This document shows, piece after piece, positions 1-27,300 of a DNA stretch of 32,393 nt (positions are counted from its first letter, which is position 1; each line of letters starts with the position of its first letter). The DNA lies in assembly GCA_023265235.1 (NCBI GenBank), contig JAHFUF010000002.1, positions 1 to 32,393 on the forward strand, given 5' to 3'. Both the position numbers and the translations under genes were made by a program. Source of the stretch: Blastocatellia bacterium. Lineage in GTDB: Bacteria; Acidobacteriota; Blastocatellia; Chloracidobacteriales; JADJPF01. The notes under the pieces are model-generated. The model was given only the letters and a program-made list of their open reading frames with translations, was not told the DNA's origin and ran no database searches.

Positions 1-1200
1 CTTTAACAACTACAGCAGCTTGTTTAATAGCGTTATAGCTATTTAAGACTGTTTCAATTTCTCCTAGTTCGATACGAAACCCTCTAACCTTTACTTGATT
101 GTCAATTCGTCCTAGAAACTCTATATTTCCATCTGCTAAGTAACGAGCTTGATCCCCTGTTGAATAAAGCCTTTCACCCAGCTTGTTACTAAATGGATTA
201 GGGATAAACCTTTCTGCTGTAAAGTCTGGACGATTGTAATATCCTCGCGCTAATGAAATGCCTCCAATATATAGCTCTCCTATTACTCCTATAGGAACAA
301 TTTTGTAGTTTTTATCAAGAATATAAGCTTTTGTATTAGCAATAGGCTTACCAATTGGTACTCTTTGTTTTTTGGCTTCACTAATACATTGATAGTAAGT
401 AGCATCTATAGTTGTTTCTGTTGGGCCATAAAGATTATAAAGCTCTGCTTTAGAAGACTTAAAGAAAAGCTCTTTTAATTGTGGACTTAAGGCTTCACCA
501 CCACAAAAAATTCGTTTTAGCTTGTTATTTGCAAACTCTTTTTCTTCAACAATTAGGCTTAAAAGCGATGGAACAAACTGAACTGTAGTAATGTTATTAC
601 TGCTAATAGTTTCTAATAAGTATTTTATATCCGAATTAAAGTCAGGTTTGGTTATTACTAGCTTTGCTCCAACAATTAGTGGAAGATAAAACTCACACAC
701 AGAAGCATCAAAACTAATAGGGGTTCTTTGTAATGTTGTATCTTCTGATGTTATAGAAAATCTGTCTTTCATCCAAATCATATGATTAGCTATAGCTTCT
801 TGGGTAATCATCACCCCTTTAGGCAAACCTGTAGACCCTGATGTATGAATTATATAGGCTATTTCCTGACCACTAATATTAAGTTTAGGGTTGTGTTTTG
901 CTGATGTGTTAAATATTGAGTCTTCTTTATCAAGATAGAGCTTAGCTACTTTTAGCTCAGAGGTTTGCTCTTTTAGCTCAGAATGAGTTATCAAAAGCTG
1001 TAGGTTTAAGTCATTAATAATAAAGTTTAGTCTATCTATTGGGTAATAAAGACTTAACGGTACATAAGCAACACCAACTTTTAGACTTGCTATCATAGCA
1101 ACAACTATTTCCAAACAGTTTTGCATATAAATGCCTACTACAGATTGTCTTTCTATTTGCGCTTTAAGATAGTTTGCAAGTTGATTAGCTTTCTCATTTA
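1..1200 (-). repeat. Tandem module duplication, distal A-domain copy (period 3162 nt)
   Basis: Aligns with 3163..4362 at a constant offset of 3162 nt (1054 codons). There is an 84-nt perfect match at 386-469 = 3548-3631. The translated A domains are nearly identical from NQLANYLK through GRIDxQVKxRGFRIELGEIE. The copy is truncated by the window edge. Confidence 0.85.
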
Positions 1201-4200
1201 ACTCTTGATAGGTAAGTACTTTGTTTTCAAAACTTACAGCTATAGATTCAGGAGTAAGTGCTACTTGTTTTTCAAATAGTTGATAAACAAACACATCTTT
1301 TGGATAGTTAACATCTGTTTGGTTAAACCCTTCTAATAGAATACTTTGCTCTTTATCATTTAATATTGGTAAGGTAGAAACCTTGTGACTAGGGTTATTT
1401 ATTAGTGACTCAAGTAAAACTTGATAATTTTCAAGCATCCTTGTTATGGTGTCATCTTCAAATAAACTAGTATTGTATGTTAATGATACTTCTAGTCCAT
1501 TGGATGTTTGAGTCATAGAACATGTTAAATCAAACTTTTCAATATTTGTCTCAATATCAAAGTAAGATAGTTCTAAATCATTGAGATTAAATGTTGATAA
1601 GTTATCTTCTTGGAGTAAAAACATAATTTGAAATATAGGAGAATAGCTTAAGCTTCTCTCAGGCTGGAGTAACTCAACTAGTTTTTCAAAAGGAATTTCT
1701 TGATGTGTATAAGCTTCTAAACAAGTTTCTCTTACTTTTTCTAACAACTCTAGAAATGAATCATTAGCCGAAAAACTAGTTCTTAATATCAGCGTATTAA
1801 GAAAAAAACCTATTAAACCTTCTGTTTCAGGATGGTTCCTTCCTGCTATTGGGCTGCCTACTATTATGTCTAGCTCTCCGCTATAACGATATAGCAAAAG
1901 CTTAAAGCTAGCTAACATTGTCATAAACAAAGTTGTGCTTGCTTTTTTACTTAAAGAAACTACCTTTTGACTTAACTCTTTTGAAACAATAGTTTGCTGT
2001 CGTCTGCCATGATGTGTTTGGTTTGTAGGTCTAGGTTTATCTATTGGTAAACTATGCAGAGGTTTAATACCTGAAAGCTTTTTCTCCCAATACTTAAATT
2101 CTTTTTCTAAAACCTCTCCTGATAACCTATCACGTTGCCATAAAGCATAGTCTACATATTGTATTGGTAATGGGTCAAAGCTAGGGGGTTGACCTGAAAT
2201 AAAACCTTGATAAAAGGAGCATAATTCTTGTAAAAAAATATTTATTGACCAAGCGTCTGAAACTATATGATGTGTGCTAAGTAATAAAATAGCAGACTCT
2301 TTTGACAATAAAAATAACATCACTCTTATTAAAGGCAATTTAGACAGGTCAAAAGCTTTACTGGCAACCTGTGTGATTAATTCTACACTTTTTTGTTTAC
2401 TTTCTACTTCTGATAAATGGGTTAAGTCTATTGTTTCTAGAGCAATATAAAAATCATCTTCTATTATTTGCACTGGTTGTTCTAAAAGAGTGCTAAACCT
2501 AGTACGTAGGCTTTTGTGTCTCTTTATAATTTCATTAACACTTTTTTCTAGGGCTGTTATATTTATAGTACCTGTTATTAATCTTGTTGTAGAGGTGTTA
2601 TAAACAGGACTATCAGGTTCAAACTCAGCCAAAAACCATAACCTTTGTTGGGCAAATGATAAAGGTAGCGATTTGGTTCTATCCACCACTATAGAGCTAA
2701 ATTCGTTAGCAGACCCAGAATAAAGCATTACTTTTTCTGCTAGGCTAGCCACAGTAGCCGAATCAAAAATATCTCGAATAGTCATTTTTATATTAAAGTT
2801 TTTTTGTATTCTAAAAATAATTTGTAAAGCTAAAAGCGAGTGACCTCCTAAAGCAAAAAAATTGTCATAAACTCCTATTTTTTCTCGTTTTAGTATTTCA
2901 GACCAAATTTTAACAACCTTTTCTTCTATGGTATTTCGAGGAGCAACAAAACCTTCTGATACTTCTATATCAGGGGTTGATAGTGCATTTCGGTCTATTT
3001 TCCCGTTTGGCATTAATGGAAAAAAGGGTAAAAAAACATAGCCTGTAGGGATCATATAACTTGGTAACTTAACTCTTAGTATCTGTTGAACTTCTTGTAA
3101 TGTCATCTCTATTGACTTTGTAACCAAGTAAGCAACTAAACCTTTATCCCCTTTACTATTTTCTTTAGCAAGGACTACAGCGTCTTTTATAGTTGGGATT
3201 TCTAAAAGTGCTGATTCAATTTCTCCCAACTCTATCCTAAATCCTCTTATTTTTACTTGACTGTCAATTCGTCCTAGAAACTCAATATTTCCATCAGTTA
3301 AGTAGCGAGCTAAGTCTCCTGTTGAATACAGCCTTTCACCTAGTTTGTCACCAAAAGGATTAGGGATAAACCTTTCTGCTGTAAAGTCTGGACGGTTGTA
3401 ATACCCTCGTGCTAATGCAACACCTCCAATAAACAACTCTCCTACTACTCCAATAGGCACAATATTTAAGTGTTTATCTAAAATATAAGTCTGTAAACCA
3501 TCAATAGGCTTACCAATTAGTACTGGCTGTTTTTTAGCATCATTAACACATTGATAGTAAGTAGCATCTATAGTTGTTTCTGTTGGGCCATAAAGATTAT
3601 AAAGCTCTGCTTTAGAAGACTTAAAGAAAAGTTCTCTTAATTGTAAGCTCAATGCTTCACCACCACAAAAAACTCGTTTTAGCTTGCTATCAGTAAACTC
3701 TTTTTCTTCAACAATTAGGCTTAAAAGTGATGGGACAAACTGAACTGTAGTGATGTTATAGCTGCTAATAGTTTCTAGTAAATATTTTATATCAGCATTA
3801 AGGTCAGGTTTGGTTAAAACTAGCCTTGCTCCAACAATTAGCGGAAGATAAAACTCCCATACAGAAGCATCAAAACTAATGGATGTTCTTTGTAATGTTG
3901 TATCTTCTGATGTTATAGAAAATCTATCTTTCATCCAAACCATATGATTAGTTATAGCTTCTTGGGTAATCATTACTCCTTTAGGCAAACCTGTAGACCC
4001 TGACGTGTGAATGATATAGGCTATTTCCTGACCACTAATATTAATTTTGGGGTTGTGTTTTGCTGATGTATTAAATATTGAGTTTTCTTTATCAAGATAG
4101 AGCTTAGCTACTTTTAGCTCAGAGACTTGCTCTTTTAGCTCAGAATGAGTTATCAAAAGCTGTAAGTTTAAGTCATTAATAATAAAATTTAATCTATCTA

Positions 4201-7200
4201 TTGGATAATAAAGACTTAGTGGGACATAAGCAATACCTGACTTTAGACTTGCTATCATAGCAACAACTATTTCCAAACAGCTTTGCATATAAATGCCTAC
4301 TATAGCTTGTCGTTCGATTTTCACTTTAAGATAGTTTGCAAGTTGATTAGCACGCTCGTTAAGTTGTTGATAAGTAAGCGACTTTCCTTCTAAGATCACA
4401 GCTATATTATTAGGTGTTTGTAAGGCTTGTTCTTGCAAAAGTTCAGGTAAAAATTTTTCTACACAATAACCCTTTTGCCAACTATTAAACCCCACTATTT
4501 GATTATATTCACTTTTATCTAAAAATGAGATTTGAGAAATAGGAGTTTTTCTATCAACTAATATTTTCTCTAACAAAGTTTGATAGTGTTTTGACATTCT
4601 TAAAATAGTGTTTTGATCAAAAAGGTCAGAATTATATTCCCACACTAAAGAAATCTGTTTTACATTAGAAGAAGAATTTGCTCCAATAGATTGTTCAAAA
4701 TGAGGGATAACAATAGCGGTAAGATCAAACTTAGAAGAGCCATTACTTAATGCTTCTGTTAGGTTTATGTCTACTTCAGGGAACTCTAGTTTTGGAATTT
4801 GCGCGTCATGGAAACTAAAAAACACTTGGCATATTGGAGAATAGCTTAAACTACGTGCTGGATTTACTGCATCAACAACCCTATCAAAAGGAATGTCTTG
4901 GTTTTCATAAGCTGCTAGTGTTGTGTGTTTTATTTTTTCTAATAAATCGTCAAACCTTTCTTCTTCTGACAAGATACTTCTTAGGACTATATTATTAACA
5001 AACATGCCTATAATATTTTCTACTTCTTGTAAGCGTCGATTAGCAATTGTTGAGCCTAAAGCTATATCTTTTTGACCACTATAACGATAAAGCAGGATTG
5101 TAAAAGCGGCAGACATCACCATAAATAATGTAGTTTCTTTCTCCCTGCTTAAATTACGTAGCGATTGACAAAGCTCTTCTGATAAGTGCTGTCTAAAGCT
5201 ACTACCTTGAAAAGTTTGCAGACTAGGGCGCACACGATCATAAGGAAGTGTTAGTAATGGAGGGCAACCTGTTAAATTGTTTTTCCAGTAAGCAGATTGA
5301 GCCTTGGCAGCTTGAGTTTCTAACCATTGATGTTGCCAAGCAGCAAAATCAACAAACTGTATTTTAAGCTCTTCTAATTTTGGATTCTGGCCTAAGTAGT
5401 AAGCTTGATAAAGAGTTACTAGCTCTTTAAGAAATACATTAAAAGACCAACCATCATGAACTATATGATGTTCACTATGAATTAAAACATGCTCTCTATG
5501 GCTTAAACGTATTATCAGCCAACGAATCAAATATAACTCTGATATATCAAACTCTTTAGAAATTTGATCATTAATTAATTTTTCTAACTTAAGTGTTTTT
5601 TCTGCTTCTGGTATTTCGCTTAAATTAATAACAGGAACACTATTAAAGTGATGTGGATGAATAATTTGTACTGGTTCTTCACCAACTATACTAAATGTAG
5701 TACGAAATATTTCATGTCTATTTATAATCTCATTAAAACACTTTTCTAGAATGTTAATGTTTAAGTTACCTTTTAACTCTAACTTAGAATGAAAAGTATA
5801 GGCTAAAGGGTTTGATGCTAGTTGTTGAATAAACCAAACTCTTTTTTGGGAAAACGATAGAGGTAAGGGCTGATGGCGAGGGATAGGAGTAATTTTTTCT
5901 ACAACTGACAAAGATTTTGATTTTGATAGGTCGAGTTTTTTGGCAAGCTGAGCTAAGGTTTCTGAGCTAAAAAAAGTACTTAAAGATAGTTCTACTTGAA
6001 AGTGTTCACGAATTCGACTAACTACCCTAGTTGCTAGTAAAGAATGTCCCCCTAGTTCAAAAAAATTATCAGACCTGCTTACATTTCTTACAGCTAAAAC
6101 TGTTTCCCAAATATTGGCTAATATTTTTTCTTCTTCTGTAGCAGGTGGGTCATAATCTCTAGCTTCACTTAATTCTTGGCTTAGAGCTAAAAGTGCTTTT
6201 CTATCTACTTTTTCATTTGCCGTTAGAGGAAACTCATCTATTTTAATAAATCGGCTAGGCACCATATGCTCTGGTAATTGTTTGCCCAAAAACTCTTTTA
6301 TCTCGTTTACAATAAAACCTACATTTTCTTTAACCCCTAGATATGCAATTAATTGTTTGTCTCCTAAAGGTGTCTCGCCTACTAATACAACACTTTGTTT
6401 AACTACAGGGTGTGTGTCCAAAACAGTTTCTATTTCACCCAATTCTATACGATAGCCTCTAACTTTTACTTGATTGTCTTTACGTCCAAAAAATTCAATA
6501 TTCCCATCTGGTAGATAACTAGCCAAATCTCCAACTTTATAAAGCCTTGCACCTGGTTTAGAGCTAAAAGGATTAGGAAGAAACCTTTCTGCTGTTAAGT
6601 CTGCTTTGGCTAAATATCCTCTTGCTAACCCGTCTCCTGATGTATAGAGTTCTCCCATAACTCCTATTGGTACAATATTAAAGTCTTCATCTACTATATA
6701 AATCTCTGTATTAGAAACAGGACATCCAATAGAAACTGTTCTACCTACTTGGCTTACATCTGTCATAACATAGCAGGAAGTAAAAGTAGTGTTCTCTGTT
6801 GGCCCATAGCCGTTAATTAGTGTTATTCCTGGTACTTGCTCTAGTAACTTCTTTACCTGTTTTACTCCTAGTACATCGCCTCCTGAGAATAGATATTTTA
6901 ACCCTCTAAAACAATCTATTTGTTCTTCTACCATTTGGTGAAATATGGCTGATATTAGCCAAAGAACTGTTATTTTGTATTCTTTTATTTTTCTTCCTAG
7001 ATCATTTAACGAAGGTTTGTAAGCAGGAAACACTACGAGTTTTGCACCATTGAGTAGGCTACCCCATATCTCAAAAGTAGAGACATCAAAAGAAATAGGT
7101 GTAAATTGTAAAAATACGTCCTGTGATTGGATTTTTATATAGTTAGTTTCTTTGATTAACCGAACTATTGATTGGTGACAAACAATCACTCCTTTAGGAT

Positions 7201-7594
7201 TACCCGTTGAACCTGACGTATATATAACATACGCCATATTTTCTGGTCTTACTAAAACGCTAAAATTACTGGTAGACTCTTTTTCTATTTCTTCCCAATC
7301 TTGGTCTAAACAAATAGTATTATTGCTTATAGCTTCTATTTTATCTCTTAACCTTTTTTGCGTTAAAATAACCTCTGCCTTAGCGTCTTTAATTAAGTAT
7401 TCTAGTCTTTTTTCAGGGTAAGCAGTTTCTAAAGGTAAGTATCCTGCACCTGCTTTTATAATAGCTAATACAGCAATTATCATTTCTAAGGAACGCTCTA
7501 AGCAAACTCCTACTAAGGTTTCTTCTTTTATTCCTTGTTTTCTTAAATAACTTGCTAATTGATTTGCTTTCTCGTTTAGCTCTTTATAGGTCAA
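1..7594 (-). CDS. Non-ribosomal peptide synthetase, 3' end runs off the left window edge: A-T-C-A-T-C-A(partial)
   Basis: Absent from the supplied ORF track because it has no stop inside the window. Hand translation of the minus strand (codon first bases at positions equal to 1 mod 3) is stop-free from 7684 to base 1. Motifs read directly, in order: first A domain YTSGSTG 7202-7222, NGYGPTE, GRKDNQVKVRGYRIELGEIE, NEKVDRK ~6200-6220. Carrier FELGGHS (Ser 6041-6043). C domain HHIVHDGWS 5444-5470. Second A domain HTSGSTG 3989-4009 with 10-residue code DAWQFGLIDK (Gln-type). Carrier ALGGHS (Ser 2837-2839). C domain HHIVSDAWS 2246-2272. Third A domain (code so far DACQFGLID) readable through GRIDNQVKVRGFRIELGEIE at ~60-120. 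Coordinate 7594 is the first canonical in-frame start (TTG) after the last upstream stop. The true start is uncertain. Confidence 0.9.
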   Translation of the reverse strand, partial: MTYKELNEKANQLASYLRKQGIKEETLVGVCLERSLEMIIAVLAIIKAGAGYLPLETAYPEKRLEYLIKDAKAEVILTQKRLRDKIEAISNNTICLDQDWEEIEKESTSNFSVLVRPENMAYVIYTSGSTGNPKGVIVCHQSIVRLIKETNYIKIQSQDVFLQFTPISFDVSTFEIWGSLLNGAKLVVFPAYKPSLNDLGRKIKEYKITVLWLISAIFHQMVEEQIDCFRGLKYLFSGGDVLGVKQVKKLLEQVPGITLINGYGPTENTTFTSCYVMTDVSQVGRTVSIGCPVSNTEIYIVDEDFNIVPIGVMGELYTSGDGLARGYLAKADLTAERFLPNPFSSKPGARLYKVGDLASYLPDGNIEFFGRKDNQVKVRGYRIELGEIETVLDTHPVVKQSVVLVGETPLGDKQLIAYLGVKENVGFIVNEIKEFLGKQLPEHMVPSRFIKIDEFPLTANEKVDRKALLALSQELSEARDYDPPATEEEKILANIWETVLAVRNVSRSDNFFELGGHSLLATRVVSRIREHFQVELSLSTFFSSETLAQLAKKLDLSKSKSLSVVEKITPIPRHQPLPLSFSQKRVWFIQQLASNPLAYTFHSKLELKGNLNINILEKCFNEIINRHEIFRTTFSIVGEEPVQIIHPHHFNSVPVINLSEIPEAEKTLKLEKLINDQISKEFDISELYLIRWLIIRLSHREHVLIHSEHHIVHDGWSFNVFLKELVTLYQAYYLGQNPKLEELKIQFVDFAAWQHQWLETQAAKAQSAYWKNNLTGCPPLLTLPYDRVRPSLQTFQGSSFRQHLSEELCQSLRNLSREKETTLFMVMSAAFTILLYRYSGQKDIALGSTIANRRLQEVENIIGMFVNNIVLRSILSEEERFDDLLEKIKHTTLAAYENQDIPFDRVVDAVNPARSLSYSPICQVFFSFHDAQIPKLEFPEVDINLTEALSNGSSKFDLTAIVIPHFEQSIGANSSSNVKQISLVWEYNSDLFDQNTILRMSKHYQTLLEKILVDRKTPISQISFLDKSEYNQIVGFNSWQKGYCVEKFLPELLQEQALQTPNNIAVILEGKSLTYQQLNERANQLANYLKVKIERQAIVGIYMQSCLEIVVAMIASLKSGIAYVPLSLYYPIDRLNFIINDLNLQLLITHSELKEQVSELKVAKLYLDKENSIFNTSAKHNPKINISGQEIAYIIHTSGSTGLPKGVMITQEAITNHMVWMKDRFSITSEDTTLQRTSISFDASVWEFYLPLIVGARLVLTKPDLNADIKYLLETISSYNITTVQFVPSLLSLIVEEKEFTDSKLKRVFCGGEALSLQLRELFFKSSKAELYNLYGPTETTIDATYYQCVNDAKKQPVLIGKPIDGLQTYILDKHLNIVPIGVVGELFIGGVALARGYYNRPDFTAERFIPNPFGDKLGERLYSTGDLARYLTDGNIEFLGRIDSQVKIRGFRIELGEIESALLEIPTIKDAVVLAKENSKGDKGLVAYLVTKSIEMTLQEVQQILRVKLPSYMIPTGYVFLPFFPLMPNGKIDRNALSTPDIEVSEGFVAPRNTIEEKVVKIWSEILKREKIGVYDNFFALGGHSLLALQIIFRIQKNFNIKMTIRDIFDSATVASLAEKVMLYSGSANEFSSIVVDRTKSLPLSFAQQRLWFLAEFEPDSPVYNTSTTRLITGTINITALEKSVNEIIKRHKSLRTRFSTLLEQPVQIIEDDFYIALETIDLTHLSEVESKQKSVELITQVASKAFDLSKLPLIRVMLFLLSKESAILLLSTHHIVSDAWSINIFLQELCSFYQGFISGQPPSFDPLPIQYVDYALWQRDRLSGEVLEKEFKYWEKKLSGIKPLHSLPIDKPRPTNQTHHGRRQQTIVSKELSQKVVSLSKKASTTLFMTMLASFKLLLYRYSGELDIIVGSPIAGRNHPETEGLIGFFLNTLILRTSFSANDSFLELLEKVRETCLEAYTHQEIPFEKLVELLQPERSLSYSPIFQIMFLLQEDNLSTFNLNDLELSYFDIETNIEKFDLTCSMTQTSNGLEVSLTYNTSLFEDDTITRMLENYQVLLESLINNPSHKVSTLPILNDKEQSILLEGFNQTDVNYPKDVFVYQLFEKQVALTPESIAVSFENKVLTYQELNEKANQLANYLKAQIERQSVVGIYMQNCLEIVVAMIASLKVGVAYVPLSLYYPIDRLNFIINDLNLQLLITHSELKEQTSELKVAKLYLDKEDSIFNTSAKHNPKLNISGQEIAYIIHTSGSTGLPKGVMITQEAIANHMIWMKDRFSITSEDTTLQRTPISFDASVCEFYLPLIVGAKLVITKPDFNSDIKYLLETISSNNITTVQFVPSLLSLIVEEKEFANNKLKRIFCGGEALSPQLKELFFKSSKAELYNLYGPTETTIDATYYQCISEAKKQRVPIGKPIANTKAYILDKNYKIVPIGVIGELYIGGISLARGYYNRPDFTAERFIPNPFSNKLGERLYSTGDQARYLADGNIEFLGRIDNQVKVRGFRIELGEIETVLNSYNAIKQAAVVVK
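3163..4362 (-). repeat. Tandem module duplication, proximal A-domain copy (period 3162 nt)
   Basis: Same evidence as 1..1200. Similarity decays upstream of about 4350, at the N-terminal part of the A domain and the C-A linker. Confidence 0.85.
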
Positions 7595-7712
7595 TTGTCG
7601 AGATTCAAATTCAATTGCTATAACTTCTGGAGTTGTTCTTACTACTTCTTCAAATAGTTCTACAATAGTCTTATCCTTTGGATAATTAGTAGCAGTATTA
7701 TTAATTTGCAAT
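6164..7712 (-). repeat. Starter A-domain cassette, copy 1 (direct repeat of 14723..16281)
   Basis: Colinear with the 5' end of the neighbouring NRPS gene at an offset of 8559-8569 nt. There is a 140-nt perfect match at 6633-6772 = 15192-15331, and 2 mismatches in 58 nt at 7383-7440 versus 15951-16008. Similarity ends exactly after the codons for SQELSE (6164 / 14723). Confidence 0.9.
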
Positions 7713-7756
7713 GGCAAGTCTTGCTTATCACAATGAGCTAGTTTTTTCTCTAACAT
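7595..7756 (-). other. Frame-broken 5' leader of the left NRPS gene (possible frameshift, pseudogenisation or sequencing error)
   Basis: ATG 7754-7756 has an AAAGG motif at 7762-7766 and is in the same frame as the gene body. That frame contains TGA 7727-7729 and TAA at 7724-7726, 7700-7702, 7697-7699 and 7685-7687. Segment 7681-7740 reads LAHCDKQDLPLQINNTATNY only in another frame, where it matches the paralogue (LSLQVNNTATNY). Left copy TATCAAAG (7676-7683) versus paralogue TATCCAAAG (16244-16252) shows a 1-nt deletion. Confidence 0.6.
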
Positions 7757-7876
7757 AAATACCTTTAAGTTTTAGAATTTATTAGAATGCTTAAAACTGT
7801 AAATTTTAGCTAAGGAGAGTCTTTAAAACCATATTAACCCACTAGGAAAAACATAGTAGGGGCGAACAGTTCACCC

Positions 7877-16611: not shown

Positions 16612-19600
16612 ATGACAGATTTTTCACATTTATCATTAACAGAGAAAAGAGAACTTCTAGCAAAATTATTACAAAAACCCTTAAAGGACAAAATATTTCC
16701 TTTGTCCTTTGCCCAACAACGTCTTTGGTTTTTGGATAAATTAGAGCCAATGAATTCTGCTTATAATATTTCTACAGGCTTTCTTTTAGAAGGAAACTTA
16801 AATGTAGAATACCTAGAACAAAGTATTAATGAAATTATTAAGAGACACGAAAGCCTAAGAACTAGTTTTGAAACAATTTCTGGCCAACCTAAACAAATTA
16901 TTAAAGAAGCGCGAAACCTGTCTTTAACAAAAGTGGATTTAGGACAAACCCCGTTAAATCAACAACAAGATGAAATAGCAGCAATTGCCTTAAAAGATGC
17001 TAAAGAACCTTTTGAACTCTCAGAGTGGCCATTGCTAAAAGTAAAACTACTTTATTTCTCAGAAAACAAACATGTACTACTCCTAGTAATTCATCACATT
17101 ATTAGCGACAATTGGTCTATTTCATTATTTCTACAAGAGTTACAAGAGTTTTATCAAGCTTTTTATTATAAAAGAGACCCTAAAATAAAACCTTTAAGAA
17201 TCCATTATGGCGATTTTTCGGTTTGGCAAAGAGAATATTTACAAGGAGAGGTTTTAGAAAAAGAATTAAGTTACTGGAAACAAAAACTAAGTAAAAACCT
17301 ACCTGTATTAAACTTAGCCTTAGATCACCCAAGGCCACCATTACAAAGCTACAAAGGGGCTAATATATTTATAGAAGTCCCAAAAGAAATCTTTGAGAAG
17401 CTAAAAAATATTTGCACCCAGCAACAAGTTACTTTATTTATCTTATTACTAACCGCTTTTAGTACACTGCTTTACAAATACACAGGACAAACAGATTTAC
17501 TTATAGGATCTCCTGTTGCTAATCGTAACCGTAGTGAATTTGAAGACTTAATTGGGCTACTAATTAATATGTTAGTCCTAAGAATAGACCTATCAGGAGA
17601 ACCAACTTTTCTTGAAATGCTCAAGCGTGTACGTGAAATTGTACTAGATGCTTGTGCTCACCAAGAAGTTCCTGTAGAAAAATTGGCTGAAGAAATACAA
17701 CCCCGACGAGATTTAAGCACCCCATTTGTACAAGCAAGTTTTTCTCTCAATGAAGGTGTGTCAAACTTGGTGTTACCAGAACTGGCAGTCACTAGATTAG
17801 TCATTCATAACAACACAGCAAAAGTAGACTTAAACCTAGAATTAAAAGAAGCTAATGGAGTGTTAACAGGAATTTTTAACTATAACTCTGATTTATTTGA
17901 TGAAAGTACGGTTAAACAAATCTCGTTAGACTTTGAAAACCTATTAACTTTTGTAACAAATAATCCAGAACAACATATTAATTTATTACCTAATTTAATA
18001 TTGCCCGCAGACAAAAAAAATTATGTTAATAATGAAGAAAAAACAAACTTAAGTTCTAATCAATTACTAGTTTGGTTAGGACAAAAATTACATCCTAATG
18101 TCCCGCTTTATAATATTCCAATCTTTGCCATTATTTCTGGTCAAATAGACATAGACAATTTACGACAAGCCTTTCAAATCTTGGTTAACTCTGCTGACAT
18201 GCTTAGAACAGTAATTGAAGAGGTTCAAGGAGTAGCACAACAAAAAGTGTTGTCAGAATTAAATTACTTACTTGATTATTTTGATTTTTCAAACCTTACT
18301 TCAGAGTCGCAACTACAAGATTGGATGGTGGAAAAGTCACAATATATTTTTAATAACAACGAAGTCCTCTTTTACTCTGCCCTAGTGAAACTGCCTAATA
18401 ATAGCCTAGCATGGTATCTCAATATGCATCATTTGATTGGAGATGGTTGGTCAGGGCCATTAATTTTTGAGCGTGTATCAGAGATTTACCAACAATTGGT
18501 ATCTGATAGCTTTGAGACTTTTTCACTACCTCAATTTCAAGATTATTTGTTAAAAGAAAAACAAGAAAAAGCTTCTAAACGTTATTTATCTGCTCTGAAT
18601 TATTGGCAGAAAAAGCTATCAATAACTGCTGAACCAATTGTTTTTTATGGGCAAAAAAATGAAAAAATATCTACAAAAATTAAGCGTATTAAATATAACA
18701 TTAATACTGAAAATACTAATAAGTTAAAAGCTATTACTACAGAAGAAAATATCTCGATTCTTAATATTTTTACCGGGCTGCTTTTTACTTATTTGTACCG
18801 TATTAGCGGACACTCGTTAATTTCTATTGGCGTACCTTTTCATAACCGCCGTAGTAAAGCTTTTAAGCATACCATTGGGCCGTTTATGGAAGTATTGCCA
18901 TTACAAGTTAGTATTTCTAAGGAAGAAACTTTTGCTTCACTAATTAAAAAAGTAAAATTAGAGACTTTTGAAATACTTCGCCATGATATTTCTGTAAATA
19001 ATCCTATTAATCGTAAACATTACGATGTTTTTCTTAATTATCATAGTGAGGGACAATACAAGTTCAATTTTAATAACAAGGCTGTAGATGTTGGTTGGGT
19101 AGCAACTGGTTATGAAACCTACAATTTAGCCTTACAGGTTCATGATTTTGGGCTACTAGGGAATTTTGTTATAGATTTTGACTTCAACACAGAGCTTTTT
19201 GATCAGGAGCAACAAACTTGGGTAATAAATCATTTTACTCAACTGCTAAATATTTATTTAACTCAAGGTAGCCAAACAAGTCTAAAAAATACTAGCTTAC
19301 TTCTGCCAGAAGAACGAGAGCATATCTTATTAGGTTTTAATCAAAGTCAGCAAAATGTTCCTTTTGAACAAAACTTTGCACAGCTTTTTACCCAACAAGT
19401 AGCTAAGAATAGAGAAAAAATTGCTGCTGTTTATGGCAAAGAACAACTAACGTATCAAGAGCTAAACTTTCGTGCTAATAAATGTGCTCAGCAGCTTATA
19501 GACAAAGGAATTGGCCTAGACAACATAGTAGGATTGTTTGCACGACGGGGCTTAGAGCTACTTATTTCTATTTTAGCTGTGTTTAAGGCTGGTGCAGCCT

Positions 19601-21300
19601 ATTTACCGCTAGATCCAAATTATCCAGCCAAAAGACTTAGCTATATCCTTAATCATAGTGAAACAAAAACCATTCTAGTTACTAGGGAGATGAAAACTAG
19701 TTTAATTACTAGTCTACAAGAATTACCTAAAACAGAATGGCCAGAAATTATTGAAATAGAAGAATTATTAGAACAAACCATTGATGTTAAAGAAATAACC
19801 TCTCCTGTCCAACCGGATAATCTTGCTTATGTAATATACACTTCTGGTTCAACAGGGCTGCCAAAAGGTGCAATGGTAGCTAGTAAAGGGATGATAAACC
19901 ACTTATATGCTAAAGTTTTTGACTTAAAACTTACAGAAAAAGATTATATCGCACAAACTGCTTCACAATGTTTTGACATCTCTGTTTGGCAATTTCTCTC
20001 AGCATTAATTGTAGGTGGCAAAGTAGAAATTATTGACGATGAAATAGTGCTAGATCCTTTAAGACTACTTAACTTAGTGGCTAGCCAGCAAATATCTATC
20101 CTAGAAGTAGTTCCATCACTACTTAGCGCGATGTTAAATAGTATTACTGTTCAAAAACCAAATCTATCTCTTTTAAGATGGCTGGTTGTAACTGGAGAAG
20201 CCTTTGCTCCAGAACTCTGTCGTCAATGGATGTTAGACTATCCAGAAGTTCTAGTAATGAATGCTTATGGCCCAACAGAGTGTTCTGATGATGTTACTCA
20301 TTATTTAATTACTTCTACATTGCCTAAAGAAATGACTTATATGCCAATAGGCTGTCCAGTAATTAATATGCAGCTTTATATACTAGACCAGCATTTATCT
20401 CCTGTACCTATTGGAGTTGTAGGAGAAATCTATGTAGGAGGAATTGGAGTAGGACGAGGTTACTTAAAAGATCCTGAAAAAACTGCCAATGTCTTTTTGC
20501 CTAATCCTTTTGCAATGTCATCAGGAGAAAGACTTTATAAAACAGGTGACCTAGGAAGATGGTTAATAAACGGCGAAATAGAGTTTTTAGGCAGAATAGA
20601 CCATCAAATAAAAATACGCGGTTTCCGTATAGAGCTAGGAGAAATAGAATCTGTATTAAGAGAATATCCTGAAGTTAAAGACGTTGTTGTAGTAGCCAAA
20701 TCTTTAGATACTACCGAAAACACCGAAAACACTAATAGCTTAAAAACTAGCCAAGATAACGTAATTGTTGCTTATTTAGTGGCAAGAAGCTCACAATTCC
20801 TTATTAGCAGCTTACGTGAGTTTATGCAGGAAAAATTGCCTGACTATATGGTGCCAGGGTTGTTTATGTTCTTAGACACTTTACCTCTTAACCCTAATGG
20901 TAAAGTAGATCGCGCTCTACTTCCTGAACCAAAAAGGGATCGTGAGCAAACACAAAACCATTATATCGCCCCTAGCACAGAGGTTGAGCAACAGATTGCT
21001 AATGTTTGGGGAAGGTTATTAAAAATAGATAAAATAGGGGTTAATGACAATTTTTTTGACCTAGGAGGACATTCACTTTTACTTGTCCAGGTGCAAAACA
21101 AACTAAAAGAGCTTGTAGGAAAAGAAATACCTTTAGTGGAAATGTTTCGCCATCCTACAGTAAGTTCTCTAGCTAATTATTTTACTCAGCTAACTCAGAC
21201 TCTTAAGCAAGTTGACCAGGAAGATTTTTCAGAAGTTAAAGAACGTGCAAGAAAACGTACAACTACAAAACGCCAAAGACCGCAGGGGGCTTATGAATAA
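16612..21300 (+). CDS. Non-ribosomal peptide synthetase, 1562 aa: C-C-A-T
   Basis: ORF track entry. Domain order:
- N-terminal helix LSLTEKRELLAKLLQK.
- C1, aa 27-455: LSFAQQRLWFL, HHIISDNWS at nt 17092-17118.
- C2, aa 478-895: EntF/DhbF-like N-terminus LSSNQLLVWLGQKLHPNVPLYN, HHLIGDGWS at nt 18427-18453.
- A, aa 920-1435: YTSGSTGLPKG, NAYGPTECSDD, YKTGD, NGKVDR. Code DIWEVTADDK.
- T: DLGGHS Ser1488, nt 21073-21075.
- Basic tail KERARKRTTTKRQRP. Confidence 0.95.
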   Translation: MTDFSHLSLTEKRELLAKLLQKPLKDKIFPLSFAQQRLWFLDKLEPMNSAYNISTGFLLEGNLNVEYLEQSINEIIKRHESLRTSFETISGQPKQIIKEARNLSLTKVDLGQTPLNQQQDEIAAIALKDAKEPFELSEWPLLKVKLLYFSENKHVLLLVIHHIISDNWSISLFLQELQEFYQAFYYKRDPKIKPLRIHYGDFSVWQREYLQGEVLEKELSYWKQKLSKNLPVLNLALDHPRPPLQSYKGANIFIEVPKEIFEKLKNICTQQQVTLFILLLTAFSTLLYKYTGQTDLLIGSPVANRNRSEFEDLIGLLINMLVLRIDLSGEPTFLEMLKRVREIVLDACAHQEVPVEKLAEEIQPRRDLSTPFVQASFSLNEGVSNLVLPELAVTRLVIHNNTAKVDLNLELKEANGVLTGIFNYNSDLFDESTVKQISLDFENLLTFVTNNPEQHINLLPNLILPADKKNYVNNEEKTNLSSNQLLVWLGQKLHPNVPLYNIPIFAIISGQIDIDNLRQAFQILVNSADMLRTVIEEVQGVAQQKVLSELNYLLDYFDFSNLTSESQLQDWMVEKSQYIFNNNEVLFYSALVKLPNNSLAWYLNMHHLIGDGWSGPLIFERVSEIYQQLVSDSFETFSLPQFQDYLLKEKQEKASKRYLSALNYWQKKLSITAEPIVFYGQKNEKISTKIKRIKYNINTENTNKLKAITTEENISILNIFTGLLFTYLYRISGHSLISIGVPFHNRRSKAFKHTIGPFMEVLPLQVSISKEETFASLIKKVKLETFEILRHDISVNNPINRKHYDVFLNYHSEGQYKFNFNNKAVDVGWVATGYETYNLALQVHDFGLLGNFVIDFDFNTELFDQEQQTWVINHFTQLLNIYLTQGSQTSLKNTSLLLPEEREHILLGFNQSQQNVPFEQNFAQLFTQQVAKNREKIAAVYGKEQLTYQELNFRANKCAQQLIDKGIGLDNIVGLFARRGLELLISILAVFKAGAAYLPLDPNYPAKRLSYILNHSETKTILVTREMKTSLITSLQELPKTEWPEIIEIEELLEQTIDVKEITSPVQPDNLAYVIYTSGSTGLPKGAMVASKGMINHLYAKVFDLKLTEKDYIAQTASQCFDISVWQFLSALIVGGKVEIIDDEIVLDPLRLLNLVASQQISILEVVPSLLSAMLNSITVQKPNLSLLRWLVVTGEAFAPELCRQWMLDYPEVLVMNAYGPTECSDDVTHYLITSTLPKEMTYMPIGCPVINMQLYILDQHLSPVPIGVVGEIYVGGIGVGRGYLKDPEKTANVFLPNPFAMSSGERLYKTGDLGRWLINGEIEFLGRIDHQIKIRGFRIELGEIESVLREYPEVKDVVVVAKSLDTTENTENTNSLKTSQDNVIVAYLVARSSQFLISSLREFMQEKLPDYMVPGLFMFLDTLPLNPNGKVDRALLPEPKRDREQTQNHYIAPSTEVEQQIANVWGRLLKIDKIGVNDNFFDLGGHSLLLVQVQNKLKELVGKEIPLVEMFRHPTVSSLANYFTQLTQTLKQVDQEDFSEVKERARKRTTTKRQRPQGAYE

Positions 21301-24300
21301 CGAAAATGACACTCTAGACACAGCAATTGCAATTATAGGGATGGCTTGCCGCTTTCCTGAAGCAAACAATATTGCTGAGTTATGGCAAAACCTAAAAAAT
21401 GGTATTGAGTCAATTAAGTTTTTTTCTAAAGAAGAATTGTTAGCCGTTGGTATTGAAGAAACTTTACTTGATAATCCTAACTATATTAGAGCCAAAGCAT
21501 TTTTGTCACACATAGACAAATTTGATGCCTCCTTTTTTGGCTATAGCCCAAAAGAAGCTGAGTTAATTGACCCACAACAAAGAATTTTCTTAGAACTTGC
21601 TTGGCAAGCTCTAGAAATAGCTGGTTATGATAGTGAACAATACCCTGGCCAAATAGGAGTTTATGCTGGAATCGGCTTAAATACTTACTTATTAAATAAT
21701 CTAATTAATAACACAGATATATTTACTTCATCTCGTAGACATCAAGCGGTTTTAGGTAATGACAAAGATTTTCTCCCTACAAGGGTTTCATATAAATTAA
21801 ACCTAACTGGGCCAAGTATGACTGTACAAACAGCCTGTTCAACTTCCCTAGTAGCAACCTGTTTAGCCTGCCAAAGCTTGTTAGACTACCACTCAGATAT
21901 AGCACTAGCCGGAGGAGTAAGTGTTACTATTTGGCAAAAGAAAGGCTATTTTCATGAAGAAGGAGGAATTTATTCTCGTGATGGGCATTGTCGTGTTTTT
22001 GATGCTCAATCTACAGGCACAGCAGCAGGAGAAGGAGCAGGAATTGTAGTATTAAAACGCTTAAAAGAAGCCCTAGCAGATGGAGACAGTATTTATGCAG
22101 TAATCAAAGGGTTCGCACTTAATAATGATGGCTCAGAAAAAATTGGCTATACCGCCCCAAGTGTTGATGGTCAGGCTAATGTAATCGCCGAGGCTCAAGC
22201 AGTAGCAAATGTTACTCCAAAAGAAATTACTTACGTAGAGACTCATGGCACAGGGACAATTTTAGGCGACCCAATAGAAATTGCAGCATTAACAAAAGCT
22301 TTTCGCGGTAGTACAGATAAAACCTGTGCTATTGGCTCAATAAAAAGTAATTTTGGTCATACAGACACTGCCGCAGGCGTAGCAGGTTTGATAAAAACTG
22401 CCTTGGCGTTACAAAACAAGCAAATTCCTCCTACTCTACATTTTGAAACCCCCAACCCTAATATTGATTTCACCAATAACCCTTTTTATGTAAACAAAAC
22501 ACTTATACCTTGGGAAACCTCTATGTTACCTCGACGTGCTGGTGTTAGTTCTTTTGGTATCGGTGGTACTAACGCACATTTAGTACTAGAAGAAGCACCA
22601 GAAAGCATAAATAGCCCAACTAAAAAACCTTGGCAATTACTAGTGCTATCAGCTAAAACAGAAAATGCTTTGGAAATGGCTAGTAAAAACTTAGCAGAAT
22701 ATTTAATTGCAAACCCTGAAAGCAACTTAGCAGATATTGCTTATACTTTACAAATTGGACGACGAGCCTTTTCACACCGGCGAATAATAGCTAGTAATAG
22801 CACTAGTCATGCTATTGAAACACTTAAAGTTAATAACCCTCAACAGGTCTTTACTAGCCATAACATAGATAGTAAACCGCCTGTAGTGTTTATGTTTTCT
22901 GGACAAGGTTCACAATATATTGGAATGGCTAAAGAGCTTTATCAGAACGAACCTATTTTCCAAAAATATCTAGACAAATGTTTTGCAATACTTAAAACCA
23001 ACCTAGATATGGACTTACATAGTATAATTTACCCTAATGAACAGAATAAATTGGCCTCAGCAATCGAACTAGACCGTATTTTGTTTACATTACCTGCCTT
23101 ATTTTCTATAGAGTATTCCCTAGCCAGGTTTTGGATAGAATTAGGAGTAAAGCCTTGGGCAATGATAGGTTACAGCCAAGGAGAATATATAGCGGCTTGT
23201 CTTTCAGGAGTATTTTCCTTAGAAGACGCATTAGCTTTGGTTTTAGCCAGAGGTAGGTTAATGGAAACTTTGCCTAAAGGAGCTATGTTAAGTGTAGCAA
23301 TGTCAGAAACAGAACTACTTAATATACTCCCTTCTGAACTATCCTTAGCAATTGTTAGCTCTGATAACCTATCCATAGCGTCAGGAGATATTCAAGCAAT
23401 AGAAGACTTTTTTAATTTTCTTACTAATAAAGAAATAGAGTGTAAAAAACTAAACGTCCACCATGCTTATCATTCGCATATGGCTAAGCCTATTTTGGAG
23501 CATTTTACCCAAGAGGTAAAAAAAATCAGCCTACATCCTCCACAAATACCTTATTTATCAAATGTTACAGGGACTTGGATTACTAAAGAGCAGGCTACTG
23601 ATCCTAGTTACTGGTCTAAACACTTACGTCAAACTGTTAGATTTTCTGATGGCTTAATTGAGCTATTTAAACAAAAAGAGTTGTTACTCTTAGAAGTTGG
23701 CCCTGGAAAAAGATTAACAGCTTTAACACAACTGCATATTAACAAAAAGCCTCAACATACAGTGGTAGCTTCTTTACCTCCTCCAAGTTTTACCGAATCT
23801 GAACACGCTTTTTTTCTTAATTCACTAGGAAAGCTCTGGTTATCAGGAGTAAAAATTAGCTGGTTAAAATATTATGGTGATGAACAAAGACACCGAATTA
23901 ACTTACCTACATACCCATTTGAGCGCGACAGTTATTGGATAAATGCACCAAATCAAACTAATAATTCAAAGGCTAATAGTTTAGTTGATGACTTAGCACC
24001 TAAACCAAACATAAGTGATTGGTTTTATTTTCCTAGTTGGAAACAAATGCCTTATTTGCTGACAAATAGCGAAGATGTCGAATTTAGTCCTAAAAATTAC
24101 TTGGTTTTTGCAAATGAAACGCCTCTTTGTGAGAGGGTTTTAACCGAGCTAAACTTTTTAGGTCATCAAGTAACTTCAGTAAAACTAGGAGAGGGGTTTT
24201 CCAAACTCCTAGATAATTACTATGTTAATTTTTCTCAAAATAGCTATGAGCAATTGTTTCCATCTCTCGCTAGTAACAATAAATCGCCTGATATTATTAT

Positions 24301-27300
24301 CCATTTTTGGTTATCAGACTCTTCAGACTCTAAAACTATTGACGTTTTATCAGAGATTAATTTTGACGAAATCCAACAATTAGGATACGTTAGTTTACTT
24401 AATACTGTAAAAGCTTTATCAAGAGAGGGTTTTACTCACAAGATTAAGTTATTTTTTATCTCAAACAATATATTTTCAGTAACTGGACAAGAAACGCTTT
24501 GTCCAGCAAAAGCAACCACTGTAGGGCTTTGTCGGGTTATTTCTCAAGAAAACCCTAATATTTATGCTAGCAATATTGACATATCTGGAGACTTGCCACT
24601 AGAAACCCTGGCCAAAGAAATAATTTTTTCTACAACCTCCCCAACTAAAGAATTAACTATCGCATATCGTGGACGTTACCGTTGGTTACCGGACTACCAG
24701 CCATTTTTGTTAAACACAAAAATGCTACCATTAAAAGAAAATGGAGTTTATTTAATTACTGGTGGTTTAGGGGGTTATGGGCTAGAAATTGCTGAATATT
24801 TAGCTCATAAAGTAAAAGCAAAATTAGCCCTAGTAAACCGTAGTAGCTTTCCACAAAAAAGTGAATGGCAAAGCTATCTAAATAATCTAGATAGCTCAAA
24901 CAATCCAAACAATGAGGTTAGCCAGAAAATTAAACGGCTACAAGCTTTAGAATCTTTAGGCGCGACCATATTAACCTTTTCTGCTGATGTTACTAATTTT
25001 CACGAAATGCAGTCAGTAGTTGAGCAAGTAACAAATAAATTAGGCAACATCAATGGTGTATTACATTTAGCAGGTTTAGTAGGTGGGGGGTTAATTGAAA
25101 TCAAAGACTGGTCAGATATGGCCAATGTTATTAATACCAAAGCAAAAGGGACAATAACATTAGCAAAGTTATTTCTAGCACAAAAATTAGACTTTTTTAT
25201 TTTATTCTCTAGCATTAACGCTATTTTAAGCAGGTATGGTCAATCAGATTACTGTGGTGCCAACGCCTTCCTAGACGCTTTTGCTTATTATTTCAACCAA
25301 TTTACCCTAACAATATCAATTAATTGGGAAACTTGGCAAGATACTGGTATGGTCGCAGTTAAACAACCTATCAATGAAAGAGCTAATTTATGGAAAGAGG
25401 AAATGGAGACTCTGACTAGCACAATGTCTGTTAAAGAAGGAGTCAAAGCATTTGAAAGAGCCTTAACAGTTCAAGTACCTCAAGTAATAGTGTCTAGTAG
25501 AAACTTTTCTTTATTATGGAAATATTACCAGGAAAAATTAGCAAAGATAGAATTACAAAATACTCCAACAACTATAACCCAAACCTATTCCCGTCCAATA
25601 TTAGCTACTAAGTATGTTGAGGCTAGCAATGATACAGAACAAAAATTAGTGGAAATCTGGCAAGAAGCTTTAGGTTTTACACCGATAGGTATTTATGATA
25701 ATTTTTTTGACTTAGGTGGTGATTCAGTTATAGCTATTCAACTAGCAGCAAAAGCCAATAAAAAAGGGTTGAAAATTAGCTCAAAACAATTTTTTGAACA
25801 CCAAACCATCGCTGATTTAGCTAATAATATTACCCATAGCCAAACCAAAATAGACCAAGAGGTTGTTACAGGTTTTGTCCCATTAACCCCAATTCAAAAA
25901 TGGTTTCTTAATCAAAATTACCATAATCTTAATCATTTTAACCAAGCAGTAAGGCTAAAGGCTAGTCAACCAATAGATTCAGCTTTACTAGGAAAAGCCC
26001 TTCAAATCCTAGTTACACATCACGATGCGTTACGGATGAGATTTTTTCAAGAAAATGGTGAATGGCAGCAATTTAACGCTGAAGTAGACAATAATGTTGA
26101 TTTTTTAACCACCATTGATTTAATTAACTTATCAGACTCAGAGCAATCGAAAGCCATTGAATCAGCAGCAAACAAAGCTCAAAAAAGCCTAGATATAAGA
26201 CAAGGAAAGGTTTTCTCTGCCCTACTTTTTTCCTTAAGTAAACTAGACTATCAGTTACTAATAATTGCTCATCATTTAGTCATTGATATAATTTCTTGGC
26301 CAATATTATTAGAAGATTTAGAAACAGCTTACCAACAACTTAGTCAATCCTCACCTGTTTTATTACCTAATAAAACTACTTCATTTAAGAATTATGCTGA
26401 AAAATTATTAGTCTATTTAGAGTCAATAACAGAAGAACAAAACTATTGGTTAACCCTTGCTTGGGAACGTTTTTCTCCATTATTTGTTGATTATCCAGAT
26501 CAAGATAATAATTTTTCTAATCTAGAACAAATAAACCTATCCTTTAGTGTTGAAGAAACTAATAGTTTAATAAAAGAAATAACCAAAACTTACAAAATAC
26601 GAGTCCAAGATCTATTAATAGCAATTTTGGCAGAAAGCTTTTCTCGTTGGGCTGATATTTCTACTGTGGCTATTGATGTAGAAATGCATGGTAGAGAAGA
26701 AATTGCTCCAGAAATAGACCTATCACGCACAGTAGGTTGGTTTACCAGTGTTTTCCCACTTGTAATAGATTTTAGTAAAGCTAATACATTAAATGAGCGT
26801 GTTAGTTATGTAAAATGGTACATCAATAACATTCCAGCTAACAATGGTATTGGTTATGGTTTACTCCATTTGTCTTCAGACAAAGAGCTACTAAAAAAGC
26901 TACTGCTACTGCCAACCCCTGAAATTAATTTTTTATATTTAGGACAAACTAGAAATACTAATGACCAAGAAAAGCTCTTTTTTACTACGTCAGACTCTTG
27001 TGGAGAAACTATTGATAGAAAGCAAAAACGCAGATATTTATTTGAGATAGTTGGGAAAGTTATAGAAAATAAATTACAAATAAATGTATTTTATAATCAA
27101 AGGCAATACAAAAAATCAACAATTGATTTACTGTCTCAAAGCTTAACTAATGTAGTTAAAGAATTAATTTTTAATGCTCCAAAAAATATTTTATTAGAAA
27201 ATAATAATAATGAAATAGAGCAAAATAAAATAGAATTTTTAGATATTTCACAGCAAAAACAAATCGCTACACAGCTAGGTTATCAGCCTACAGAGGTTTA

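Follow-up and report, generated by a model that had tools for sequence, protein, structure and literature searches.

Background

Genome-mining software reads an epimerisation (E) domain in a nonribosomal peptide synthetase (NRPS) as a D-amino acid at the position of the E domain's own module. E domains have also been described next to polyketide synthase (PKS) modules. The gamma carbon of myxoglucamide has the opposite configuration to that of L-Glu; its authors attribute this to the E domain of MxgC, which follows a PKS module, proposing that it inverts the gamma-aminoacyl stereocentre (PMC13638107). In fungal PKS-NRPS systems with the order acyl carrier protein (ACP)-E-condensation (C) domain (Cladobotryum mycophilum, Ramalina farinacea) and in the XyaA/XyaB pair, an E domain likewise stands after a PKS carrier or partner and before a C domain (PMC11731387). 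Our literature searches on KR-ACP-E type orders (KR, ketoreductase) turned up only the fungal PF1163A paper, and the papers on histone deacetylase (HDAC)-depsipeptides, megapolipeptin, didemnin and cyanochelins B and C present no case of an E domain behind a PKS module. In this study, we report on an E-type domain behind a PKS module that is encoded at 25865..27256 on the plus strand of a 32,393-nucleotide stretch of contig JAHFUF010000002.1 (assembly GCA_023265235.1, Blastocatellia bacterium). The whole stretch is referred to as the window.

The domain lies in a hybrid PKS-NRPS protein with the order ketosynthase (KS)-acyltransferase (AT)-KR-carrier (T)-E-C-T. The arrangement KR-T-E is not new. 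What is new is a sequence signature, by which the PKS-coupled E domains appear to form a large, widespread and previously undescribed subclass with an altered active site.

Methods

Residue numbers (His1688, Glu1824) were counted from the TTG codon at 21212. Domains were assigned with Pfam and compared with sequences in the PDB using phmmer. Relatives were collected with a KR-T-E query, for which the length of matches was limited to about 1.75-fold that of the query; an AT-KR-T-E query was then used. Searches with the whole protein and with representatives returned mostly multi-module PKS or NRPS giants, and these served as the background sample of canonical E domains. In total, 409 E domains were aligned to one profile, of which 333 follow an adenylation (A) domain and its carrier (A-T), 26 follow KR-T and 50 are of unknown context; 116 were added later. 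The PKS-coupled relatives that lack a dehydratase (DH) domain number 125, at a median identity of 47%, and a non-redundant set of 35 PKS-coupled representatives below 55% identity was drawn up.

Results and discussion

Identity of the E domain, its carrier and the following C domain

The hybrid gene, ORF3, occupies 21293..28987 on the plus strand, as do all domains described below unless stated otherwise, and encodes 2564 aa from its ATG. The frame is open from TTG 21212, but the ATG at 21293 is the likely start, from which the identical protein P0001 has also been called; the stop is at 28987. The carrier that follows the KR (25640..25825) bears the GGDSV-type motif FFDLGGDSVIAIQ (aa 1498-1510, nt 25703-25741), in which the phosphopantetheine Ser is encoded by TCA at 25724-25726. 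In the domain behind it the E motifs are PLTPIQKWF (25880-25906), HHLVIDIISW (E2, 26270-26299), DLLIAIL (26609-26629), EMHGRE (E4, 26681-26698), RTVGWFTSVFP (26726-26758), NGIGYG (26843-26860) and FLYLGQ (E7, 26930-26947). His1688 is the second His of E2, where the Gly after the Asp is replaced by Ile1693; Glu1824 lies in E4; and in E7 the usual Asn is replaced by Leu1908. A first-pass annotation of the window had listed these seven motifs, the carrier Ser, His1688 and Glu1824, and each was recovered where it had been placed, with the E motifs spread between 25880 and 26947. The interval that it gave for the region, 25628-27181, takes in the carrier and most of the E domain, but the domain ends at about 27256 and thus extends beyond it.

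In searches of the PDB, the best matches of the domain were the T-E structures of PvdL (2.7e-110) and GrsA (1.9e-98), followed by the E domains of TycA, TycB and BacC (1e-68 to 1e-87). Ordinary C domains scored 1e-24 or worse. By predicted fold and by motifs the domain is an E domain, and the possibility that domain typing would turn it into an ordinary C domain, which the first-pass annotation had named as a way to refute its claim, was checked and dismissed on these values (1e-68 to 1e-110 against 1e-24 or worse). The same PDB matches and the GGDSV carrier bear out its description as an E domain that is complete and sits, after KS-AT-KR, on a carrier of the E type.

The C domain that follows (27293..28567) starts with YPLSPQQEGML (27299-27331) and carries HHILVDG at 27692-27721. 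Its best PDB matches were McyB (6.8e-91) and PvdL (4e-83), then BacC, SrfA-C and TycB1, all C domains that follow an E domain, while the LCL domain TycC6 was matched at only 1.4e-29. Judged by these matches it is of the DCL type, accepting D-configured donors, in agreement with the D-donor type proposed at first.

The window domain therefore shares with canonical E domains the catalytic second His, the Glu of EGHGRE, a GGDS carrier in front and a DCL-type C domain behind. It departs from them in the E7 Asn, in the Gly of HHxxxDG, in the alpha-aminoacyl substrate (by architecture) and, narrowly, in the NCBIfam model TIGR01720 for the E-specific C-terminal region, which it matches at 70.8 bits, just under the cutoff of 74.2. 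The E7 Asn column aligns with residue 975 of GrsA (alignment to 5ISW, with Glu892 as anchor). Stachelhaus and Walsh reportedly mutated Asn975 of GrsA and found epimerisation impaired, for which our literature searches gave no confirmation.

The chain held by the carrier

The module comprises a KS (21317..22591; PF00109, PF02801), an AT (22877..23866; PF00698) and a KR with structural and catalytic subdomains (24095..25342; PF21394, PF08659). Pfam reads ORF3 as KS, AT, KR, two PP-binding and two Condensation domains, and finds in it no DH, no methyltransferase and no thioesterase. The DH families PF14765 and PF21089 gave no match; the gap of about 290 aa between AT and KR is taken up by the KR structural subdomain only, and about 100 aa separate KR and T. 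Alignment shows an intact KR, in which both the GGLGGYG motif for NADPH and the catalytic residues Lys, Ser, Tyr and Asn are present.

The AT reads GYSQGE (23168-23185) and HAYH (within 23459-23476), a malonyl-type signature; GYSxGE is common in its AT clade. HAFH was found in every relative with an AT visible before KR-T-E, and in at least 103 of 116 proteins of the larger set. Neither the window nor its 35-kb parent contig holds extender-unit genes. Given the malonyl-type AT and the lack of a C-methyltransferase, C2 of the tethered chain would be an unsubstituted CH2.

The upstream gene, ORF2 (16612..21300, plus strand), has the order C-C-A-T, with an LCL-type C, a divergent second C-like domain, an A domain of code DIWEVTADDK and a GGHSL-type T, and supplies the KS of ORF3 with an aminoacyl or peptidyl chain. 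Since its first C domain is of the LCL type (best PDB matches Txo2, Txo1 and TycC6, all LCL domains), the ORF2/ORF3 pair would continue an assembly line rather than start one. The KS follows an A-T module in three independent cases, namely the window (counted once together with a 95% identical copy, L002), P0102 and L007, and by Pfam order also in L008 to L010. The A-domain codes of the three cases are DIWEVTADDK, DAFFLGVTYK (Ile/Val-like) and DPWDFGMIDK, respectively; none is a Gly code, so a stereocentre is expected at C4. From this layout the carrier should hold a 4-(acylamino)-3-oxo and then a 3-hydroxy, statine-like acyl thioester. The beta-hydroxy chain foreseen in the first-pass annotation is thereby upheld, by an upstream gene ending in A-T, an intact KR and the missing DH.

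A signature shared by PKS-coupled E domains

When the aligned E domains were sorted by context, the groups were told apart best by two columns, E7 and the one directly behind the Asp of HHxxxD. At E7, Asn occurs in 322/333 canonical A-T-E proteins but in only 14/125 KR-T-E proteins without DH (3/35 in the non-redundant set), and Leu, found in 97/125 (28/35) of the latter, occurs in 0/333 of the former. The Gly after the HHxxxD Asp is present in 270/333 canonical domains against 6/125 (4/35) PKS-coupled ones, which mostly have Val, Ala or Ile. The catalytic residues behave differently: the second His is kept in 330/333 canonical and 113/125 PKS-coupled domains (33/35 non-redundant), the E4 Glu in 328/333 and 114/125 (32/35), and the E7 Tyr in 326/333 and 123/125 (33/35). 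The carriers differ as well, with GGDSI in 336/348 A-T-E proteins and GGDSV in 19/26 KR-T-E proteins, most of the others having GGDSV or GGDSL.

All elements of this signature (GGDSV, Ile, Leu, His1688 and Glu1824) occur in the window protein, together with the architecture of the subclass, that is KR-T-E, a malonyl-type AT, no DH and an A-T upstream. A neighbour-joining tree of the E domains was star-like, and nearest neighbours, at 0.4-0.55 identity, mix PKS-coupled and canonical domains.

Selection on the window protein was gauged against P0002, a full-length homologue with 70% identity. The dN/dS ratios were 0.23 for E, 0.19 for C, 0.18 for AT, 0.17 for the catalytic part of KR and 0.11 for KS; dS is near saturation in this pair, and only the comparison between domains is meaningful. 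The first-pass annotation had considered a relic of a module whose C-A was replaced by KS-AT-KR. A decaying relic is rejected, since the E domain has a dN/dS (0.23) like that of its neighbours and the catalytic His and Glu are retained in about 90% of the 125 relatives.

A separate group of 17 relatives has the order KS-AT-KR-DH-T-E, in which the DH unusually stands after the KR (P0400, P0441-P0444, P0464, P0469, P0477, P0481, P0494-P0495, P0502-P0504, P0508, P0510 and P0514-P0515). Here the catalytic E His is lost in 12/17 (Tyr, Asn, Gln or Ala instead) and E7 is Ser in 10/17. The His is thus kept in 113/125 relatives without DH against 5/17 with DH (Fisher p = 1.2e-7, uncorrected for relatedness). 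The five DH-containing relatives that keep the E2 His are P0400, P0481 and P0495, which have FLYLGQ, and P0441 and P0504, which do not. A complementary decay of DH and E was considered and rejected, the aligned DH keeping its His and Asp in 17/17 with only a Gly differing.

Distribution of the KR-T-E arrangement

The first-pass annotation knew of no characterised example of this domain order and implied that it is rare. Neither part stands: MxgC is a published case of a PKS module followed by E and DCL domains (PMC13638107), and at least about 140 other proteins have KR-T-E, mostly KS-AT-KR-T-E proteins of about 2000 aa from Nostoc-type cyanobacteria. The KR-T-E query returned about 25-26 fragments with all three domains in one alignment, from Blastocatellia, other Acidobacteriota, Aminicenantes, Rhizonema and many metagenomes. 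With the AT-KR-T-E query, 116 of the best 120 matches carry KR-T-E; 99 of them are KS-AT-KR-T-E proteins without DH, of about 2000 aa, and the other 17 have a DH after the KR. The matches come from Nostoc punctiforme, Nostoc sp. NIES-4103, Desmonostoc, Scytonema, Fischerella, Calothrix, Anabaena, Westiellopsis, Microcoleus, Dulcicalothrix and Richelia, and also from Herpetosiphonaceae and Symbiobacteriaceae. In 94 of the 116 relatives the protein ends about 40 aa past E in a tail of the type TPSDF...LSQxDLDxL, which resembles the communication helices of GrsA and TycA. Wherever context was available, the gene after the KR-T-E gene starts with a C domain.

Two cyanobacterial loci, L008 (Nostoc sp. 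NIES-4103, AP018288.1, about 8.31-8.33 Mb) and L009 (Dulcicalothrix desertica PCC 7102), have the KS-AT-KR-T-E gene between a FAAL-ACP-C-A-T gene and further NRPS genes, with an AMIN-TonB receptor alongside, and the L008 cluster also holds TauD hydroxylases. The setting resembles that of cyanochelin-like siderophores; no product of these two clusters is described in the literature consulted. Siderophore-type clusters were seen in two of the three cyanobacterial loci inspected and TauD genes in two of three. In Microcoleus sp. F4-D5 (L010), an FkbH-type cassette at 616-4005, upstream of KS-AT-KR-T-E, comprises HAD-like, ACP, 3-hydroxyacyl-CoA dehydrogenase and acyl-CoA dehydrogenase genes and would provide an extender unit derived from glycolate; even so, HAFH is what the AT of the module with the E domain reads.

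Several other contexts were noted. A 95% identical copy of window 16565-28986, the two-gene cassette, lies on CAZHXL010000127.1 (L002) in a metagenome-assembled genome labelled 'uncultured Clostridia bacterium'; its left flank is an AraC-type regulator rather than divergent NRPS genes, and its reading frame is broken near window 28004-28011. In L007 (ENA ERZ27258529 NODE_99, 6652-12464), a C-A-T-C-A-T-KS-AT-KR-T-E gene ends a run of co-directional genes and the next gene is on the opposite strand, so that the E-like domain, with no C domain or thioesterase after it, is the last domain of the protein string. Residues 1504-2929 of P0257 comprise KS-AT-KR-T and then three tandem C-superfamily domains, the first with a canonical E signature (Gly, FNYLGN) and the second with FLYHGR; the BLAST typing of the last two may be wrong.

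Possible roles of the E domain

The E identity of the domain, its DCL partner, the recurring architecture, the retained catalytic pair, the Asp-Ser of the E-type carrier and purifying selection together suggest that the window E domain is catalytically active and adapted to its substrate, to which we give a probability of roughly 0.6. As to what it does, we favour, tentatively and by analogy, inversion of C4 at the 3-oxo stage, with a probability of a little over one in three. The upstream NRPS module would hand its aminoacyl or peptidyl chain to the KS, and on the GGDSV carrier KS-AT-KR would carry out one malonate extension followed by 3-keto reduction. The E domain would keep the base-catalysed proton abstraction through His1688 and Glu1824. 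Because C2 would be an unsubstituted CH2, the stereocentre that matters would be C4, the former alpha-carbon of the amino acid; and because, in a module that lacks a DH, the 3-oxo stage is the only one at which C4 is acidic, the E domain would act before the KR. The carrier would present the 4-acylamino-3-oxoacyl thioester to E, which would equilibrate C4, alpha to the ketone; the KR would then reduce one epimer, and the DCL domain would pass on a D-configured gamma-amino-beta-hydroxy unit. Epimerising KRs, which act on 2-methyl-3-ketoacyl chains, provide a parallel for such an order of events.

A number of points weigh against this route. MxgC is its only empirical anchor, and the assignment to E is itself a proposal there; MxgC moreover has a DH, so its E domain would meet an enoyl thioester instead of a 3-oxo or 3-hydroxy chain. 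If the reported but unconfirmed effect of Asn975 is right, loss of the E7 Asn could mean that epimerase activity has been lost. With C4 at the normal C-alpha site this Asn would be expected to stay useful, and its substitution is at least equally compatible with C2 lying at the catalytic centre. The His of EGHGRE, absent in 93/125 PKS-coupled relatives, is kept in the window. The His loss in 12/17 DH-containing relatives would be unexpected if enoyl thioesters were epimerised by a vinylogous route. Finally, E would have to compete with the KR for the 3-oxo intermediate.

The domain could alternatively be an adaptor for docking or hand-off, which we consider slightly less probable. Insertion of a KS-AT-KR cassette into an A-T-E / C junction would have left the T-E unit and its C-terminal communication helix in place, and the E fold would now serve solely to offer the carrier to the DCL domain, with any proton exchange at the C2 methylene chemically silent. 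Such an origin is consistent with a C2 that is CH2, where the canonical reaction has no consequence, with the alteration of three of four hallmark positions in most relatives (E7 Asn, HHxxxDG Gly, EGHGRE His), with the TIGR01720 score just under cutoff (70.8 against 74.2 bits), with the docking-type tail that ends 94/116 relatives about 40 aa after E, and with the loss of the catalytic His in 12/17 relatives that have a DH. A pure scaffold, however, would be expected to lose its catalytic residues, a loss seen in the X and interface domains of the C superfamily, and 91-98% of the 125 relatives retain the His/Glu pair and the E7 Tyr (33/35, 32/35 and 33/35 in the non-redundant set). The substituting residues are specific rather than random (Leu; Val, Ala or Ile), and the carrier retains its E-type signature. 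Moreover, in the window E is fused to C, which makes a docking helix unnecessary, and other PKS-to-NRPS hand-offs work without a 450-aa domain.

A dehydratase-like role, also raised in the first-pass annotation, would have the E-type His/Glu pair remove the C2 proton and the KR-made 3-hydroxyl leave (E1cB), giving a gamma-amino-alpha,beta-enoyl (vinylogous amino acid) thioester with no need of a PKS DH. Beta-elimination on thioesters is known in the C superfamily, from dehydrating C domains that form dehydroamino acids and from NocB C5, but we know of no E domain that dehydrates. All 125 relatives without DH have an active-looking KR, their retention of the catalytic His (113/125 against 5/17; p = 1.2e-7, uncorrected for relatedness) runs in the expected direction, and the loss of Asn and Gly would suit a catalytic centre occupied by C2, which bears no amino substituent. 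Against this, five DH-containing relatives retain the His, three of them with FLYLGQ, and the DH-containing set represents a few lineages only; DH domains are readily available to these organisms, and none of these clusters has been connected with a product containing such a unit. We therefore regard dehydration as rather improbable. Highly improbable is a further role, epimerisation of an alpha-branched unit, as the first-pass annotation had suggested, or of an alpha-substituted one, with methyl-, hydroxy- or aminomalonyl as the extender. The AT of the window does deviate slightly, with GYSQGE and with HAYH instead of HAFH, and the L010 cluster carries the FkbH-type cassette for a glycolate-derived extender; yet the Tyr of HAYH is as bulky as Phe, HAFH is found in at least 103/116 relatives, there is no C-methyltransferase, and extender-unit genes are missing from the window and the 35-kb parent contig. 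This role was rejected on the AT motifs and the absent C-methyltransferase. The remaining probability goes to some other explanation.

Gene neighbourhood in the window

The window has a G+C content of 33%. The ATG of ORF3 overlaps the final codons and the stop of ORF2 (21293-21300, TTATGAATAA), which fits translational coupling. ORF2 has tandem C-superfamily domains before its A domain (16690-19293, plus strand), of which the second is divergent (best PDB E-value 2e-22) with HHLIGDG kept; a C-C-A start is also found in the downstream NRPS of a relative (L005, 3440-11983). At the other end, the hybrid protein closes (27293-28987) with the DCL-type C and a terminal carrier (28652..28888; Pfam PP-binding; FFELGVHSL, Ser at about 28748-28750), with neither a cognate A domain nor a thioesterase. 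A comparable E-C-T, there with a thioesterase behind it, occurs in MgpD of the megapolipeptin pathway (PMC11411415). Downstream of ORF3 lie genes for a CcbP-domain protein and a beta-propeller/cytochrome c protein, both unrelated to it; the CcbP domain is typical of cyanobacteria.

On the minus strand, two further NRPS genes were identified, one from 16324 to 7877, by open reading frame and Pfam domains, and one running from 7771 past the left end of the window (2-7771). The former starts with tandem A domains, A1 (code DALWLGGTFK, Val-like) having no carrier of its own and being followed by A2-T, and ends in a C-T without A. The latter begins with an A domain 83% identical to A1. The carrier-less A1, its 83% copy and the terminal C-T of ORF3 without A domain may hint, speculatively, at A domains that act in trans.

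Implications

Because the carrier is expected to hold a malonate-extended chain, the rule that an E domain signals a D-amino acid would be inapplicable in the window and in the about 140 related proteins. If C4 inversion or dehydration is true, structure predictions for many cyanobacterial and acidobacterial clusters, some of them siderophore-like, need correction; if the domain is only an adaptor, it is relevant for the engineering of PKS-to-NRPS junctions. The E7 Leu and the missing Gly of HHxxxDG offer a simple sequence test for the subclass, and these two diagnostic substitutions provide specific handles on substrate binding by E domains.

Comparison with known systems

Canonical E domains (GrsA, TycA, TycB, PvdL and BacC; PDB 5ISW, 2XHG, 6TA8, 9LCQ and 9RDE) belong by sequence to the same fold family as the window domain (1e-68 to 1e-110), and share with it the seven core motifs, the His of HHxxxD, the Glu of EGHGRE, the GGDS-type carrier before and the DCL-type C domain after. 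Unlike theirs, the window carrier is loaded by KS-AT-KR and would hold no alpha-amino acid on its thioester, and the window reads Leu at E7 (0/333 in canonical domains), Ile for the Gly of HHxxxDG, EMHGRE for EGHGRE and GGDSV for GGDSI.

In its logic, the closest published relative appears to be MxgC of Cystobacterineae sp. MCy9003 (PMC13638107, 2026), in which malonate extension of an NRPS-bound amino acid is likewise followed by E and a DCL-type C domain. Compared by description only, MxgC differs in having an essential DH and an unsaturated carrier-bound species, the window module having the KR only, and in having E and C on separate proteins, which are fused in the window. The fungal ACP-E-C systems, also compared by description only, differ further, since their PKS is iterative and highly reducing, with methyltransferase, enoylreductase and DH domains (PMC11731387).

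The uncharacterised, stand-alone KS-AT-KR-T-E proteins from Nostocales and other cyanobacteria, about 2000 aa long (for example in Nostoc sp. NIES-4103, N. punctiforme, Fischerella thermalis and Dulcicalothrix desertica PCC 7102), have the same domain order as the window protein, about 40% identity to it over AT-KR-T-E and a malonyl-type AT, together with GGDSV or GGDSL, FLYLGQ, no Gly after the Asp, an A-T upstream and an NRPS starting with C downstream. Unlike two of the three cyanobacterial loci, the window shows no siderophore-type genes within its bounds. The cyanobacterial proteins mostly read EGNGRE rather than EGHGRE and bear a docking tail after E, whereas the window protein continues from its E domain directly into C-T.

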